Shown: piece by piece, positions 1 to 28,214 of the stretch
Layout: every line of letters begins with the position of its first letter
How positions within the stretch are numbered: the stretch's first letter is position 1
IMG/VR virus record: IMGVR_UViG_2657244961_000001
Direction: 5' to 3' (one strand)
Length of the DNA stretch: 28,214 bases
From: a virus
Taxonomy: Duplodnaviria > Heunggongvirae > Uroviricota > Caudoviricetes
Program-made: the position numbers and the translations under genes
Notes under the pieces: model-generated
Seen by the model: only the letters and a program-made list of their open reading frames with translations
The model's database searches: none
Told to the model about the DNA's origin: nothing

Positions 1-138
1 CTCCAGTGGTTCCGTGTTGGTGATGTGATTTACGTCATGACGGGGATGACACCCGCACAAGGCCGCATGACTGAAATCCTTTCTGACGAATTTATCCGGG
101 CGCAAAAACAGGCGGAGGTAAACAATGGAAAACAATGA
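1..138 (+). CDS. 3' end of an upstream early-region gene (partial, hypothetical protein)
   Basis: Only frame open from position 1; ends at TGA 136-138; translation LQWFRVGDVIYVMTGMTPAQGRMTEILSDEFIRAQKQAEVNNGKQ. Confidence 0.35.
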   Translation, partial: LQWFRVGDVIYVMTGMTPAQGRMTEILSDEFIRAQKQAEVNNGKQ

Positions 139-308: not shown

Positions 309-617
309 ATGAATAATGGTGTATTTTCAAAATCAGAAGAGCTTGCCGCCCTGCTGATTGCCGGTGGTTTGCCGAAAAAAGAAGTGCATGACTTTGTGAA
401 TTTTGTATATGAGACGTCTCATGAAAAAGCTATTGATGAGGTCATGGCGTACCGGTTTGGCATTATTGCTGAGTCACTGAGTCCTCACTGGATTATTGAA
501 AATCTCCGCGCTATTGCTGATGGCAACGATAAATCAGCAGCCGTTGCTGCACTGGATGTGTTACGGCAAATGAGTCTGAAATTTTATCCTGAATTTATTC
601 TGAGGGCCGCAAAATGA
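309..617 (+). CDS. hypothetical early protein (about 103 aa)
   Basis: ATG at 309 preceded by AGGTGAG; an in-frame GTG at 294 is an alternative start; stop overlaps next start (ATGA at 614-617). Confidence 0.5.
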   Translation: MNNGVFSKSEELAALLIAGGLPKKEVHDFVNFVYETSHEKAIDEVMAYRFGIIAESLSPHWIIENLRAIADGNDKSAAVAALDVLRQMSLKFYPEFILRAAK

Positions 618-3343: not shown

Positions 3344-3366
3344 CCGGCATCCTGCCGGTTATTTCC
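3342..3366 (+). terminator. hairpin overlapping the C stop codon (8-bp perfect stem AACCGGCA/TGCCGGTT, 3-nt loop), possible middle-transcript terminator
   Basis: Perfect inverted repeat at 3342-3360 followed by ATTTCC; the U tract is weak. Confidence 0.3.
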
Positions 3367-5273: not shown

Positions 5274-5849
5274 ATGGACAGGAAAACACGGGGCCGGGCT
5301 TCAAAAGTGGATTTACTGCCGGAAAACGTACGTAAAACGCTGCATGAAATGCTGCGTGATAAAGCGATCCCACAGGCCCGCATTCTGGAAGAAATTAACG
5401 CACTGATTGAAGACGCTGGCCTGCCGGATGAGATGAAACTCTCCCGTTCCGGTCTGAACCGTTACGCGACGAACGTCGAGCAGGTAGGCCATAACCTGCG
5501 ACAGATGCGTGAAATGACGTCAGCACTGACCGCAGAACTTGGCGACAAGCCAATGGGAGAAACCACAAAGCTGATTCTGGAAATGGCCCGCAGCCAGCTT
5601 TTTAAGGCCATGATGCGGCAAATCGAAAACCCGGAATCTGACGTGGATATTGACCTGCTGAAAAATGCCATGCTGGCGGCACAGCGTCTGGAATCCACGG
5701 CAATGTCCAGCCACCGGCGCGAGAAAGAAATCCGCCAGGCGTTCGCAGAAGAAGCGGCAAACGCTGTCAGTGAAGAACTGCGCGGGCAGGATGGCATCAG
5801 CGAAGAACTGGAGCAGCGCATCCGTGATGTACTGCTGGGGAAAGCGTAG
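5274..5849 (+). CDS. putative terminase small subunit-like protein
   Basis: ATG at 5274 preceded by AGGAGG (5264-5269); acidic, helical protein directly upstream of the large terminase; function assigned by position only. Confidence 0.55.
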   Translation: MDRKTRGRASKVDLLPENVRKTLHEMLRDKAIPQARILEEINALIEDAGLPDEMKLSRSGLNRYATNVEQVGHNLRQMREMTSALTAELGDKPMGETTKLILEMARSQLFKAMMRQIENPESDVDIDLLKNAMLAAQRLESTAMSSHRREKEIRQAFAEEAANAVSEELRGQDGISEELEQRIRDVLLGKA

Positions 5850-5859
5850 GCGTTACGTT

Positions 5860-6030
5860 ATGAAAAATAATTACAAAGCACAGCTAATCAGTGCCCATAA
5901 AAAAGCCTTCAGGATTGCAACATTGTCTGATGTCCGGTTGATACACCAGATTCGGGATGTGCTTGTTCAGGCCATGGCTTCAGGCAATTCATGGCATACC
6001 ACCATAAAGCAACTAAGGATGTTGTCCTGA
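5860..6030 (+). CDS. hypothetical 56-aa ORF between the terminase genes
   Basis: Internal ATG of six-frame ORF 5665..6030; weak ribosome-binding site. Confidence 0.25.
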   Translation: MKNNYKAQLISAHKKAFRIATLSDVRLIHQIRDVLVQAMASGNSWHTTIKQLRMLS

Positions 6031-6123
6031 GGAGATGAAAATGGCGGATGCCCGGCGACGGCAGGTCAGGTGATCGGTTGTTCCTGGATTCGCCGGTAAC
6101 GTTTTACACCGGATTTTTCACCC

Positions 6124-7779
6124 ATGAGCACCAGAGAAAGCAAACTTAAAGCCCTTCATGCGCCCCGCAAAATCGACCTGCGTAAGGAAGCCGAACTGCT
6201 GGGCGTGAATATCGTGACCGATATCGGGGAAGCACAGCCCCGCAATGAACCGGTTTTTCTGGGCTATCAGCGCCGCTGGTTTGAGGATGAAAGCCAGATT
6301 TGTATTGCTGAAAAATCCCGTCGTACCGGTCTGACATGGGCCGAAGCGGGCCGCAATGTCATGACGGCAGCAAAGCCGCGCCGCCGTGGCGGTCGCAACG
6401 TCTTTTATGTGGGTTCCCGTCAGGAAATGGCGCTGGAATACATCGCCGCCTGTGCCCTGTTTGCCCGCGCCTTTAACCAGCTGGCAAAGGCTGACGTCTG
6501 GGAGCAGACCTTCTGGGACAGCGACAAAAAAGAAGAAATCCTCACTTATATGATCCGTTTCCCTAACAGCGGATTTAAGGTGCAGGCGCTGTCAAGCCGT
6601 CCGTCTAACCTGCGTGGTTTGCAGGGGGACGTGGTGATTGATGAGGCGGCATTTCATGAAGCCCTGGACGAACTCCTGAAAGCGGCCTTTGCGCTCACCA
6701 TGTGGGGTGCCCGCGTGCGGATCATATCGACACATAACGGCGTCGATAACCTGTTTAACCAGTACATTCAGGATGCGCGCGAGGGGCGCAAGGATTACAG
6801 CGTTCACCGTATCACGCTGGATGATGCCATCGCTGACGGGTTGTACCGACGTATCTGTTACGTCACGAATCAGCCGTGGTCGCCGGAAGCGGAAAAAGCC
6901 TGGCGTGATGGCCTGTACCGGAATGCGCCGAATAAAGAGAGTGCCGACGAGGAATACGGCTGCATTCCTAAAAAATCCGGGGGCGCTTATCTGTCACGCG
7001 TGCTGATTGAAGCCGCCATGACGCCAGCGCGAGATATCCCGATTCTGCGTTTTGAAGCCCCGGACGATTTTGAATCGCTGACACCACAAATGCGCCACGA
7101 CATCGTTCAGGACTGGTGTGAACAGGAGCTGCTCCCGTTGCTCGATGCGCTGTCGCCGCTCAATAAACACGTACTGGGCGAAGACTTTGCACGCCGTGGC
7201 GACCTGACGGTGTTTGTGCCGCTTGCCATCACGCCTGACTTACGCAAACGCGAATGTTTCCGCGTGGAGCTGCGTAATGTGACCTATGACCAGCAGCGAC
7301 AAATCCTTTTATTCATTCTGTCCCGTTTGCCCCGTTTTACCGGCGCTGCATTTGATGCCACCGGTAACGGCGGTTATCTGGCAGAGGCCGCCCGTCTGAT
7401 TTATGGCCCGGAGATGATCGACTGCATCAGTCTGACCCCCGCCTGGTATCAGGAGTGGATGCCAAAACTGAAAGGCGAGTTTGAAGCGCAGAACATCACG
7501 ATTGCCCGGCATCAGACCACACTTGATGACCTGCTTCATATCAAGGTGGATAAGGGGATCCCGCAGATTGACAAGGGGCGCACAAAAGATGAAGGCGGTA
7601 AAGGCCGACGACATGGCGACTTTGCCGTAGCGCTCTGTATGGCTGTCAGGGCGTCTTATATGAATGGTTTTGTTATCGACGAGGACAGCATACAGGCGCT
7701 GCCACCACGCCACCGTGGTGATGATGTTGATAACGATGATTTTGATGATTATCACCAGTTTGAACGAGGGGGCTGGTAA
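6124..7779 (+). CDS. terminase large subunit
   Basis: 551 aa; size, position and Mu-like context; no obvious Shine-Dalgarno upstream. Confidence 0.9.
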   Translation: MSTRESKLKALHAPRKIDLRKEAELLGVNIVTDIGEAQPRNEPVFLGYQRRWFEDESQICIAEKSRRTGLTWAEAGRNVMTAAKPRRRGGRNVFYVGSRQEMALEYIAACALFARAFNQLAKADVWEQTFWDSDKKEEILTYMIRFPNSGFKVQALSSRPSNLRGLQGDVVIDEAAFHEALDELLKAAFALTMWGARVRIISTHNGVDNLFNQYIQDAREGRKDYSVHRITLDDAIADGLYRRICYVTNQPWSPEAEKAWRDGLYRNAPNKESADEEYGCIPKKSGGAYLSRVLIEAAMTPARDIPILRFEAPDDFESLTPQMRHDIVQDWCEQELLPLLDALSPLNKHVLGEDFARRGDLTVFVPLAITPDLRKRECFRVELRNVTYDQQRQILLFILSRLPRFTGAAFDATGNGGYLAEAARLIYGPEMIDCISLTPAWYQEWMPKLKGEFEAQNITIARHQTTLDDLLHIKVDKGIPQIDKGRTKDEGGKGRRHGDFAVALCMAVRASYMNGFVIDEDSIQALPPRHRGDDVDNDDFDDYHQFERGGW

Positions 7780-11238: not shown

Positions 11239-11280
11239 CCCGCAAACTGACTGCTCACAAACCATGATGAGCAGCAGGAC

Positions 11281-12366
11281 ATGAAAAAACACGCGATTGG
11301 CATTGCCGCACTGAGTGCGCTGTCCATTGACGATGACGGCTGGTGCCAGCTATTGCCTGCCGGTCATTTCAGTGCCCGTGATGGTCGTCCGTTTGATGTA
11401 ACAGGCGGTCAGGGGTGGTTCATCGACGGTGAGATTGCCGGGCGTCTGGTTGAAGGCGTTCGCGCACTCAACCAGGACGTGCTGATTGATTACGAGCATA
11501 ACCAGCTACGTAAGGACAAAGGATTACCCCCGGAACAACTTGTCGCGGCTGGCTGGTTTAACGCCGATGAAATGCAGTGGCGTGAAGGTGAAGGATTATT
11601 TATCCACCCACGCTGGACGGCGGCGGCACAGCAGCGCATCGATGACGGCGAATTTGGTTATCTCTCTGCGGTTTTTCCGTATGACACCGCCACCGGTGCG
11701 GTGCTGCAAATCCGCCTTGCTGCGCTGACCAATGACCCCGGTGCCACCGGCATGAAAAAGCTGACCGCACTGGCGGCAGACCTTCCCGACATCCTTCAAC
11801 AGGAGAACAAACCCATGAATGAAACGCTGCGCAAGCTGCTTGCGCGTCTTGGGGTGACGGTCCCCGAAAATGCAGACATCACCGATGAACAGGCCAGCGC
11901 GGCCCTGAGTGCGCTTGATGCGCTCGAAACAGATGCCGGAAAAGTGGCGTCGTTATCCGCCGAACTGGAAAAGGCACAGAAAGCCGCCGTTGACCTGACG
12001 AAATACGTCCCGGTGGAAAGCTACAACGCCCTGCGTGATGAACTGGCACAGGCGACTGCACAAAGCGCCACAGCCAGCCTGAGCGCCGTTCTGGACAAGG
12101 CGGAACAGGAAGGCCGCATTTTCAAAAGCGAACGCACTTACCTGGAACAGCTTGGCGGTCAGATTGGCGTGGCGGCACTGTCGGCACAGCTTGAGAAAAA
12201 ACAGCCCATCGCTGCGTTATCTGCCATGCAGACCACCACAGCGAAAATTCCGTCGCAGGAAAAACCGGCGGTGGCGGTGCTGTCTGCTGATGAACAGGCA
12301 GCAGTGAAGGCGCTCGGCATTACAGAGGCTGAGTATCTGAAAATGAAACAGGAACAAGAAAAATGA
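11281..12366 (+). CDS. I: head maturation protease / scaffold protein, Mu I-like
   Basis: 361 aa; N-terminal half protease-like, C-terminal half Ala/Glu/Lys-rich coiled-coil-like; position before major capsid gene. Confidence 0.85.
   Translation: MKKHAIGIAALSALSIDDDGWCQLLPAGHFSARDGRPFDVTGGQGWFIDGEIAGRLVEGVRALNQDVLIDYEHNQLRKDKGLPPEQLVAAGWFNADEMQWREGEGLFIHPRWTAAAQQRIDDGEFGYLSAVFPYDTATGAVLQIRLAALTNDPGATGMKKLTALAADLPDILQQENKPMNETLRKLLARLGVTVPENADITDEQASAALSALDALETDAGKVASLSAELEKAQKAAVDLTKYVPVESYNALRDELAQATAQSATASLSAVLDKAEQEGRIFKSERTYLEQLGGQIGVAALSAQLEKKQPIAALSAMQTTTAKIPSQEKPAVAVLSADEQAAVKALGITEAEYLKMKQEQEK
11815..12366 (+). CDS. possible nested in-frame scaffold protein (Mu Z-like) from an internal start
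   Basis: In-frame ATG at 11815 preceded by AGGAG (11801-11805); downstream product is the helical Ala-rich C-terminal domain. Confidence 0.35.
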   Translation: MNETLRKLLARLGVTVPENADITDEQASAALSALDALETDAGKVASLSAELEKAQKAAVDLTKYVPVESYNALRDELAQATAQSATASLSAVLDKAEQEGRIFKSERTYLEQLGGQIGVAALSAQLEKKQPIAALSAMQTTTAKIPSQEKPAVAVLSADEQAAVKALGITEAEYLKMKQEQEK

Positions 12367-24147: not shown

Positions 24148-24680
24148 CACCCTGGCAGACTGCCTTTCTGCAATTACTGCCGTCAGGGCTTGCCTGGAAT
24201 AAAAGCCCCGACAGCAAATTATCTGCGCTGGCGCAGGCCATCAGTGACGTGATTGCCACTGCGGCGGATGATGCGCGGCAAATGCTGCGGGAGCGTTTCC
24301 CTTCCACATCCCGCTGGTATCTGGGTGAGTGGGAATCATTTCTGGGGTTGCCGGACTGTACCAGCGAAAACGGCACCCTGTCAGAACGCCAGCGGGCTGC
24401 CGCAAATAAAATGCGTATGACCGGCAATCTGAGTAGGCGCTTTTATGAATGGCTGGCTGCGCAGTACGGTTTTACCGTCAGGCTGACGGATTCCACAGAA
24501 GGCCAGTGGGTTACGCAGGTCAATATTTACGGTATTAAAAATTATCGCAACGCAACGGTGCTGGATAATGTTCTGACGCCGTTACGTGTTTATGAATCGG
24601 GTGCGCTGGAATGTTTACTGGAGAAATATAAACCCGCGCATCAGATTTATAAATTTGTTTACCATGACGGAGATAACTAA
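24138..24680 (+). CDS. tail/baseplate protein (Mu gp48-like)
   Basis: 180 aa; directly precedes the tail-fibre gene. Confidence 0.75.
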   Translation: MAVTPWQTAFLQLLPSGLAWNKSPDSKLSALAQAISDVIATAADDARQMLRERFPSTSRWYLGEWESFLGLPDCTSENGTLSERQRAAANKMRMTGNLSRRFYEWLAAQYGFTVRLTDSTEGQWVTQVNIYGIKNYRNATVLDNVLTPLRVYESGALECLLEKYKPAHQIYKFVYHDGDN

Positions 24681-26089
24681 TGTTTTATATTGATAACGAC
24701 AGCGGCGTAACCGTCATGCCGCCCGTATCCGCCCAGCGTAGTGCTATCGTTCGCTGGTTTTCAGAAGGTGACGGGAATAATGTTATCACATGGCCCGGCA
24801 TGGACTGGTTTAATATTGTGCAGGCGGAGTTATTAAACACGCTGGAAGAAGCCGGTATTCAACCGGATAAAACAAAATTAAACCAGCTTGCACTGTCCAT
24901 TAAAGCCATTATGAGCAATAACGCGCTGCTGATAAAAAATAACCTCAGCGAAATTAAAATTGCCGGGGCATCAGCACAGCGTACAGCACGTGAAAATCTG
25001 GATATCTATGATGCCAGCCTGAACAAAAAAGGACTCGTTCAGCTAACCAGTGCCACTGACAGCCCCAGTGAAACGCTGGCAGCCACCGCAAAAGCGGTGA
25101 AAATTGCGATGGATAATGCCAATGCCCGTCTGGCAAAAGACCGGAACGGAGCAGATATTCCCAATAAGCCGCTGTTTATCCAAAACCTCGGTTTGCAGGA
25201 AACAGTAAACAAGGCTGGTAACGCCGTTCAGCGTTCCGGCGATAAAATGACCGGAGAGCTGAAAATTGGCACGGTGAATGCGCTGCGAATTTTCAATGAT
25301 GCCTTCGGTCTTATTTTCCGTCGTTCAGAAGATTTTCTTCATTTCATTCCGACGGCTGAAGGACAAGGCGAAAACGGTGATATCGGCCCATTAAGGCCAT
25401 TCGCTATAAATCTGAGAACAGGTGCTATATCTGTCAGCCACGGGGCCAAAATTGAAGGAGGTCTAGCTATTGGTGCTACTGATAACGCACTGGGTGAAAA
25501 CTCCATTGTTCTGGGAGATAACGACACCGGATTTAGGCAAGATGGAGATGGTATTATTAGCTTCTATTCAAATGGTTCGCGCATCGGACATATTGATGAG
25601 TTAGGATTACATATTTATAAAGATATTGAATCTAATGGCGGCAATTTTAGATTAAAAGGTAATTACCGCCACCACATTACATTCGCCAACGAAGACGGAA
25701 GTATTCGTATGTTTTTGTGGAAAGATAAAGATGGTGATGGTGTTCATATTAATAATGGTTCAAGCGGTGGCGGTGATTTCGTTTTTAAAACAGATGGGGG
25801 ATTTGCGCTGGGAAGTGGTGCGCAAGTTGCGTCTAATGGCGATATTTATGGTTCAGTGTGGGAAAACAACTGGTTAAGCACATGGCTGCATAATCATGTC
25901 GTTCGGGATATTCGTCTTGGCAGCATTGAATATAAAAACGTATGGCGCGACTCCGGCTTTGGCGATGCGTCAGGTTATGTTTTAACAGCCGCAATTAACA
26001 GCAATGCGGATGATATTGTCGACACTGTTGCCAGAAGGCCAATTCAGAAATTGATTGGGGGAATATGGTATAACGTGGGGAGTGTTTAA
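24680..26089 (+). CDS. S: tail fibre protein S (constant N-terminal part up to about 25190, variable C-terminal part after the gix-like site)
   Basis: 469 aa; GGAG upstream; C-terminus similar to the C-terminus of the inverted S' cassette. Confidence 0.85.
25176..25201. other. gix-like 26-bp site-specific recombination (DNA invertase crossover) site inside S
   Basis: TTATCCAAAACC-TC-GGTTTGCAGGAA; differs at one position from the Mu gix sequence as I recall it (TTATCCAAAACCTCGGTTTACAGGAA). Confidence 0.6.
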
Positions 26090-26090
26090 G

Positions 26091-26618
26091 ATGATGCACC
26101 TGAAAAATATTAAGGCCGGGAATCCGAAAACACCGGAACAATACCAGCTAACTAAAAAAGCGGGCGTGGTATGGCTCTTTTGTGAAGATGGCAAAAACTG
26201 GTATGAGGAACAAAAGAATTTTCAGCCAGACACCATAAAAATTGCTTACGATGAGAACAACATCATCGTTGCTGTCAGTAAAGACGTTTCAACTATTAAT
26301 CCTGAAGGGCTAAGCATAGTTGAAGTTCCTGATATTACGGCAAATCGTCGCGCAGACAATAACGGAAAATGGATGTTTCTGGATGGTAAAGTAGTAAAGA
26401 GGGAATATACAGAACAGGAACTGCAACAACAGGCCGAATCACAAAAGGCCGCGTTACTTTCCGAAGCGGAAAGCGTTATTCAGCCACTGGAGCGCGCTGT
26501 CAGGCTGAATATGGCAACAGATGAGGAACGTACACGACTGGAAGCCTGGGAACGCTACAGCGTTCTGGTCAGCCGCGTGGATACGGCAAAGCCAGAATGG
26601 CCACAAAAACCAGAGTAA
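26091..26618 (+). CDS. U: tail fibre assembly protein U
   Basis: ATG one nt after S stop; N-terminus [30 protein letters not shown]...[10 protein letters not shown] nearly identical to the N-terminus of the inverted U' copy. Confidence 0.85.
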
Positions 26619-26622
26619 AATT

Positions 26623-26642
26623 AAGGCCCGATAGCGGGCCTT
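26623..26642. terminator. bidirectional rho-independent terminator between convergent U and U'
   Basis: AAGGCCCG-atag-CGGGCCTT perfect 8-bp stem, flanked by A/T-rich sequence on both sides. Confidence 0.6.
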
Positions 26643-26645
26643 CTC

Positions 26646-27179
26646 TCATTCTGGTTGTTCGGGAAACGTTACTGGCAGGCTGGAGGTGTCTGTAGATTCG
26701 ACTTTCTGCGCATAGAGCATCCACTCGATTAATTTTTGTTTATTCTCGTCTGAAATGATACCCAGCCGTAGCTGTGAGTCCCATAGCTGGGTTTTATCCC
26801 TGACAAGTTGCAACAGGCTTTGTTTTTCATTCTCTGCCTGCTGCCTCTGTTCTTCCTCGGTATAAGTTCGCTTTATCACTACGCCATCTTTGAACATCCA
26901 TTTACCCGAAATGTCAGCACGGCGATTTGCAGTAATGTCAGCAACCTCAACAACGCTTAAACCTTCTGGATTTATTGTAGATACGTCTTTATCTATAGCC
27001 ACAATAATTCCATCTGATGTGTAAGCAATTTTTATAGTGTCATCCTGAAAGTTCTTTTGTTCCTCATACCAGTTTTTATCGTCCTCAGAATACAACCAGA
27101 CAACACCGAATTGTCGCGTCAATTCATATTGTTCAACAGTTTTTGGATTTCCGGATCTGATGTTTTTCAAATGCTGCAT
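26646..27179 (-). CDS. tail fibre assembly protein U' (alternative cassette, inverted)
   Basis: 177 aa on - strand; conserved N-terminus with U, divergent C-terminus. Confidence 0.8.
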
Positions 27180-27181
27180 AA

Positions 27182-28081
27182 TTAAATACTTCCCGCGTTA
27201 TACCAAGTGCCATTGATACAATACTGCACAGGTCTTGCCTGAGTTGTATCAATAAGTTCGTCCTTATTTGAGTTGATTGAGGCAGTAACAACATAACCAG
27301 ATTTATCGTTCCAACCAGGACCATTCCATGTTTGCACTGACGATTTTGTACCTAATCGAATACCTGTAATAAATCGTGAATTACATTCTGCTTTGGTATA
27401 TGCACCAACATCTCCCGCTGATGGCTTACGTGTTGTAGTGTAAAATTCCGACCAGTCGGCTTCAAAGCCATAACCGTCACGCGCAGAACGATAATAAATA
27501 CCGCCGTTCTTATAATTCACGCGGAACTGAACAGCCGGACAACTACCAGCTCCCATATAAAAATGAAGAATTAACGTAGATGCTCCACCAATATTTGCGT
27601 TATAAACCCCGCTAATTGAGTTCCATCCAACAGCTTTGTCATTTCCAACTGTGCTTCCTGTCTGCCCTAAAGCAAATGCAGGTTGTTGATTTTTCGTGTT
27701 GTAGTCTCGTCGCCAGCCAGGAGCGTAAGCATCACCATGATTGATATAAGTGAATTGAGCGTTAGTAATTCCGCCACCGCTGGACGTGCTCGGCGTGGTA
27801 ACGCGTATGGTCATTGCGCCGCGAGTGCCAATAACTTCCACCACAGCACCTGCAAGACAAATATTCCCGCAACCTGTATCTGTAATGACCTTATTATTTG
27901 TATAAGCCCATGAGCCTTTGCACATCCAGTAAGGATGGTTAAATGCTCCCTGACTCTCCAGCCACGAAATAAATTGCGCGGTTGTCCAGACCTGACTATC
28001 GCCACCAATATTCAGCCATGCGCTATATGCGCGGCAGGGGCACTGTTGCAAAGTTAGCGATGAGGCAGCCTTTTGTCTTAT
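27182..28081 (-). CDS. alternative tail fibre C-terminal cassette S' (open frame with no ATG or ribosome-binding site of its own)
   Basis: Frame open on - strand from 28081 to the stop at 27182-27184; C-terminus ...[33 protein letters not shown] parallels S ...[33 protein letters not shown]; the track's start at 28051 is a TTG. Confidence 0.6.
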
Positions 28082-28090
28082 TCAAAGGCC

Positions 28091-28213
28091 TTACATTTCA
28101 AAAACTCTGCTTACCAGGCGCATTTCGCCCAGGGGATCACCATAATAAAATGCTGAGGCCTGGCCTTTGCGTAGTGCACGCATCACCTCAATACCTTTGA
28201 TGGTGGCGTAAGC
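28091..28213 (-). CDS. 3' end of an unidentified leftward ORF (partial; runs off the window)
   Basis: Minus-strand frame open from the window edge to TAA at 28091-28093; translation ...AYATIKGIEVMRALRKGQASAFYYGDPLGEMRLVSRVFEM; same frame as S', separated from it by TAA and TGA. Confidence 0.2.
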   Translation of the reverse strand, partial: AYATIKGIEVMRALRKGQASAFYYGDPLGEMRLVSRVFEM

Positions 28214-28214
28214 C

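Follow-up and report, generated by a model that had tools for sequence, protein, structure and literature searches.

An IS26 end joined to the silent tail-fibre gene at the right contig end of a Mu-like prophage G segment

Introduction

The G segment of bacteriophage Mu is organised in the order Sc–gixL–Sv, U, followed by the inverted U' and S'v, with the left crossover site gixL located at the Sc/Sv junction. The Mu right end comprises the 5' end of S', the second, inverted crossover site gixR, the invertase gene gin, com and mom. The 5' part of gin also carries a Fis-dependent enhancer, and relatives of the Mu Gin/gix system are the G segment of D108, the C segment of P1 and P7 with Cin, and Pin of e14.

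Two Escherichia coli prophages are the closest relatives of the locus described here. The Mu-like prophage of MIN10 (E. coli O126:H45, NZ_CP069677.1) has the closest G segment, which is present in the same orientation, and the prophage of the APEC isolate E19057 (NZ_CP126934.1) has the closest backbone, with the other cassette fused to Sc and seemingly without gixL. In both, the right end is uninterrupted, includes gin, com and mom, and is free of IS26.

IS26 is an 820-bp element of the IS6/IS26 family encoding the DDE transposase Tnp26. Elements of the IS6 family have 14-bp terminal inverted repeats and generate 8-bp target duplications upon insertion, and their intramolecular transposition gives rise to deletions or inversions without flanking repeats (PMC7986276). 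In this work we analysed a stretch of 28,214 bp of Mu-like DNA, termed the window, for which a preliminary description, guided by the Mu model, had expected a right-hand crossover site and an invertase gene, had found neither, and had offered either a decayed switch or an architecture different from that of Mu as the cause.

Results

A look-up of the S protein identified the window as the entire draft contig JRRG01000057.1 (28,214 bp, assembly GCA_000826805.1), the only contig on record with this protein, whose last 13.5 kb are identical to the window. The right "edge" of the window is thus an assembly break. Window positions 1–25230 are collinear with Mu 7347–32008 at ~98% identity, spanning the late early and the middle regions as well as the lysis, head, tail and baseplate genes up to Sc, and the Mu-type Pfam families expected for such genes were present on the gene calls of the window. 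The E19057 prophage showed 99.0% identity across window 1–25161.

At its left end (window 1–20) the contig opens partway through the homologue of Mu gp12, at the equivalent of Mu position 7347, and shows neither an IS end nor a visible repeat. The E19057 prophage extends leftwards past that point with gam, B, A, ner and c. Possible reasons for the break on this side are a second Mu-like prophage with a common early region or another insertion. Within the backbone, window 318–611 contains ~290 bp more than Mu between the gp13 and gp14 homologues, where an ORF (294–617, 107 aa) is found; the E19057 prophage has the same ORF, listed there as a hypothetical protein. Likewise, ~275 bp between the homologues of gp27 (terminase small subunit) and gp28 (window 5846–6123) are missing from Mu and present in the E19057 prophage, there without annotation; this stretch contains a possible small ORF with an ATG near 5861, reading MKNNYKAQLISAHKK…, and a stop at 6028–6030.

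The tail-fibre gene S, in which the variable part Sv is fused to the constant part Sc, occupies 24680–26089 on the + strand as an ORF and called gene of 469 aa in the expressed orientation, with PF03406 on the called gene and the Pfam families Phage_fiber_2 and gp37_trimer. The gene is 98% identical to Mu up to 25230 and unlike Mu after this position, and it shares 92% identity with the MIN10 prophage. Sv, the receptor-binding part of S (25231–26066), has no Mu counterpart. S is followed by U (26091–26618, +), a called gene of 175 aa with PF02413 (Caudo_TAP) that represents the tail-fibre assembly chaperone for S, by the ORF of the chaperone U' of the alternative cassette (26646–27179, −; PF02413), and by the variable part of the alternative fibre, S'v (27182–28038, −), as delineated by protein and nucleotide alignment. 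Two opposed fibre/chaperone cassettes are therefore present, Sv and U on the + strand and U' and S'v on the − strand, and the arrangement is that of Mu G(+), the S/U-expressing orientation, as had been read from the letters before. The closest G segment was that of MIN10, with 92% identity over window 24680–28038 in one collinear piece, whereas U, U' and S'v reached only 72–83% identity to Mu.

The left crossover site gixL was located at 25176–25203 in the Sc/Sv junction, as a single exact match to TTATCCAAAACCTCGGTTTGCAGGAAAC with 0 expected by chance. The site matches the annotated G-segment boundary of Mu (Mu 31966), differing by one mismatch from the Mu site (31954–31981) and by two from the MIN10 site. 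Allowing up to 3 mismatches, no second gix was present on either strand of the whole window, leaving gixL as the sole copy and agreeing with the reported lack of an intact right-hand site. A tolerant search of 27500–28214 yielded 15 of 28 matching positions both for the best inverted and for the best direct alignment, equal to the maximum reached in a shuffle control (15.2 ± 0.9 over 500 shuffles), and thus revealed no residual site.

At its right end, the homology of the G segment stops abruptly. Alignments to Mu, D108 and E. coli prophages including MIN10 all end at query position 3359, corresponding to window 28038, and a three-way alignment of the window, MIN10 and Mu is nearly identical up to …TATATGCGCGGCAG(G) and unrelated beyond. 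The S'v remnant comprises 284 complete codons (28036–27185), aligning without gaps to residues 34–317 of the MIN10 S' protein (317 aa) at 93% identity, and retains the C-terminal gp37_C domain (Pfam). Its 5' end is cut: ~33 codons together with gixR are missing from the contig.

In MIN10 the sequence continues beyond the homologue of 28038 with CACCAATATTTTTGG…, making up 87 bp of S' 5' coding sequence, followed by gixR (GTTTCCTGCAAACCGAGGTTTTAGATAA) and gin. This gixR is identical to the inverted gixL of the window at 27 of 28 positions. Downstream of gin, MIN10 carries com and then a Mom-type gene annotated only as a hypothetical protein, the same layout as in Mu; gin, com and mom are likewise retained in the E19057 prophage. 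In the closest relatives gin starts 169 bp past the homologue of the breakpoint, so that the placement of gixR and gin derived from the Mu model, 87 bp and 169 bp past 28038, was right. The equivalent position for gin in the window would be ~28207, which is occupied by IS26.

The remaining part of the window, 28039–28214, is the end of an IS26 copy (bases 1–176 of 820 bp, with the transposase reading on the − strand), as assigned by nucleotide identity. Compared with IS26 of plasmid R46, 176 of 176 bases matched starting from the terminal base, a comparison that covers 176 of the 820 bp; the other 644 bp, with the second inverted repeat and the rest of tnp26, lie outside the contig, as would the far copy of a target duplication. 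Positions 28040–28214 were 100% identical to at least 5000 plasmid records, all annotated as "IS6-like element IS26 family transposase". The 14-bp terminal inverted repeat GGCACTGTTGCAAA is located at 28039–28052 as an exact match and is the sole copy in the window at up to 1 mismatch. The R46 element extends over 820 bp between the inverted repeats GGCACTGTTGCAAA and TTTGCAACAGTGCC, and its 234-aa transposase gene lies on the opposite strand, ending 52 bases from this terminus. The visible 176 bp, including the 14-bp repeat and the last 40 codons with the stop of the transposase gene, are thus no different from known IS26. What is seen may belong to a truncated IS26 or mark one boundary of a larger structure enclosed by IS26.

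This assignment also accounts for the open frame at the window edge. On the + strand, the letters are TCA at 28082–28084 and TTA at 28091–28093, so that the S' frame meets TGA and TAA on the − strand, as had been noted. From 28094 rightwards this frame contains no further stop up to the end of the window, again in agreement with the preliminary description. From the placement of the gene in R46, the transposase stop falls at window 28091–28093 and is the TAA in question. The translation of 28213–28091 on the − strand gives AYATIKGIEVMRALRKGQASAFYYGDPLGEMRLVSRVFEM followed by the stop, ending …MRLVSRVFEM, so that the 3' end of tnp26 with its last 40 codons and stop is assigned to 28091–28213 (−) by translation and by its match to the R46 position. 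Given the identity of the element, the − strand ORF reaching the window edge and ending at 28091, when compared with known sequences, is tnp26, the IS26 transposase gene. The full-length R46 transposase matches PF13610 (DDE) with 2.4e-48, and the 40-aa fragment of the window is too short and remained without a match. The TGA at 28082–28084 is an incidental stop in the subterminal sequence of IS26.

The tnp26 frame, this TGA and the S' remnant share one − strand frame by coincidence, and owing to this shared frame ORF finders carry "S'" into IS26 as far as a TTG at 28051, the start given by the ORF finder, which lies inside the element. The crossover site had been expected in the S' frame at about 28036–28081; instead, 28039–28081 belongs to IS26, which by chance has no stop in that frame over this stretch. 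Similarly, the fragmentary similarity to the site described for this region (28053–28080) amounts to 13 of 28 positions, which is at chance level and lies inside the IS26 terminus. No invertase-like + strand ORF starts in 28090–28214, as stated previously, and the only + strand ORF there (27982–28200) runs antisense to the S' remnant and the IS26 sequence.

The phage–IS26 junction, for which the evidence consists of one draft assembly, had no match in genome_contigs, metagenome_contigs or viral_contigs, and no complete E. coli genome covers it. The mirror junction predicted for an 8-bp duplication, TTGCAACAGTGCC followed by GCGGCAGG and C, was not found in genome_contigs, a collection that does not hold the source assembly. 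We also considered a hybrid promoter, made of an outward-directed −35 element of IS26 and a phage −10 element, as a possible driver of the S'v remnant and U'. This candidate was rejected, as a consensus scan of 27700–28214 contained no promoter-like site.

The E19057 prophage shows a different arrangement at the left side of the segment. On the minus strand of NZ_CP126934.1, at ~11270–11370 (compare window 25140–25240), Sc runs into S'v-type sequence with no gix in between. The join lies within a short repeat, AACGG[A/T]GCAGATAT, encoding the peptide NGADIP, which is found in Sc, upstream of gixL, and again in S'v, downstream of gixR. With up to 3 mismatches in 28 allowed, the prophage contains one gix-like site, adjoining an intact gin. 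Judged from these sequences, the E19057 prophage appears to have lost gixL and so to be fixed in the opposite orientation.

Discussion

The missing right-hand site and invertase are almost certainly explained by a copy of IS26 joined to S'v at 28038/28039 together with a contig break inside IS26, as an element located in S'v and a contig ending within it leave both features absent from the window. In this reading, the outermost base of an IS26 copy abuts the 5' part of the silent S'v at 28038/28039, the element having probably disrupted a previously standard Mu switch, and the short-read assembly stalled in the multicopy IS26, so that the contig ends 176 bp inside the element.

A different origin of the junction would be an assembly chimera at the contig end that does not exist in the cell. 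Contig ends beside repeats are prone to error, and the junction is known from the one draft assembly and absent from the other collections searched; however, the join coincides to the base with the start of the IS26 terminal inverted repeat, which is the signature of transposition, and a random mis-join would hit that base in only about 2 of 820 cases per IS copy, making a chimera very unlikely. Of the two causes offered in the preliminary description, an architecture unlike that of Mu would have the right site and the invertase located elsewhere or provided in trans, their absence being native. The cassettes Sv, U, U' and S'v, which are 72–83% identical to Mu or without a Mu match, do represent a different cassette set. 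Yet the backbone shares 98% identity with Mu and 99% with a prophage that carries gixR, gin, com and mom, as do MIN10 and Mu, and MIN10, with its 92% identical G segment, has S', gixR, gin, com and mom in Mu order directly after the homologue of 28038. Moreover, an S' remnant without the first 33 codons of its intact homologue points to truncation rather than to another design, and we regard a non-Mu architecture as still more improbable than a chimera.

The other proposed cause, decay of the switch by ordinary mutation, with gixR and gin drifted past recognition and the segment frozen, is in keeping with the lack of any recognisable site or invertase in 27500–28214, and the E19057 prophage, which seems to have lost one gix by a small deletion, suggests that frozen switches occur in this lineage. 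Nevertheless, the window follows Mu and MIN10 almost perfectly as far as 28038 and shows no similarity to them from 28039, the change occurring within a single base without any fading, and the sequence from 28039 onwards is 100% identical to a known mobile element from its terminal base. Decay is hence the least probable of these explanations and hardly conceivable. Taken together, the Mu model and the S/U-expressing orientation of the preliminary interpretation stand, and both of its offered causes fall, since IS26 and the contig break account for the absence.

With IS26 joined to S'v at 28038/28039 as the preferred reading, two outcomes at the locus have roughly even chances: either IS26 was simply inserted, duplicating 8 bp of the target, or it brought about a deletion or rearrangement. 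In case of a simple insertion, the 8 bp adjoining the element, GCGGCAGG (28031–28038), would be one copy of the target-site duplication, and beyond the remaining 644 bp of IS26 one would find GCGGCAGG, then the missing 5' end of S'v, gixR and gin. The far side would then read TTTGCAACAGTGCC-GCGGCAGG-CACCAATATTTTTGGTGAAGG…, followed by GTTTCCTGCAAACCGAGGTTTT(A/G)GATAA (gixR) and the gin ORF. A deletion or rearrangement driven by IS26 would instead have cost the prophage its right end together with gixR, gin, com and mom. Even in the best case, the right site would lie ~740 bp beyond 28214 and not just past it.

Under either outcome, a complete S' fibre could probably not be made. Were gixR and gin to survive, the inverted segment would join Sc to ~33 codons of S'v, beyond which reading would enter IS26; after a simple insertion, Gin could thus still invert the segment together with IS26, but this would yield no functional alternative fibre. 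If gixR and gin are deleted, the segment would be locked in the S/U orientation. The prophage would in both cases have lost its alternative (G-minus type) tail fibre and with it one of two host ranges, and if the IS26 event was a deletion, the additional loss of gin, com/mom and the right end would render the prophage defective.

More tentatively, the locus may represent either an invertible G segment with IS26 or a deletion from gixR through attR, in both of which an IS associated with antibiotic resistance would, in nature, be reshaping a phage host-range switch; we put this forward as a possibility that falls somewhat short of an even chance. If the simple insertion is true, Gin would flip a 3.9-kb segment with a live IS26, alternating between an S/U phage and a fibre-less dead end, and if the deletion through attR is true, the prophage would be an immobile Mu remnant with one host range.

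Compared with the known systems, the locus holds nothing new in kind: it consists of a known element, IS26 over its visible part, and of a Mu Gin/gix system whose right end has been cut away. In contrast to the Mu switch, the segment is interrupted by IS26 ~100 bp before its right end, and the window lacks gixR, gin, com and mom; where Mu has the inverted second site, the window has IS26, and the site may exist beyond the element. The position of IS26 inside S' of a Mu-type prophage has no counterpart among the records searched, and the insertion site, which appears unique among them, is unremarkable. The region is hence best annotated as an IS26 end beside an S' pseudogene truncated at its 5' end, rather than as an inversion system that is degenerate or novel. 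For genome scans this means that a feature vanishing at a window edge may reflect a contig break in a repeat, and that a reading frame without an end at such an edge may belong to a transposase.

As regards the fibre cassettes themselves, identical copies of the U' protein are found on very many contigs of P1-like phage-plasmids (682 collection blocks). At the level of sequence comparison, the pattern of U' and Sv is consistent with fibre cassettes being exchanged between Mu-type and P1-type phages.
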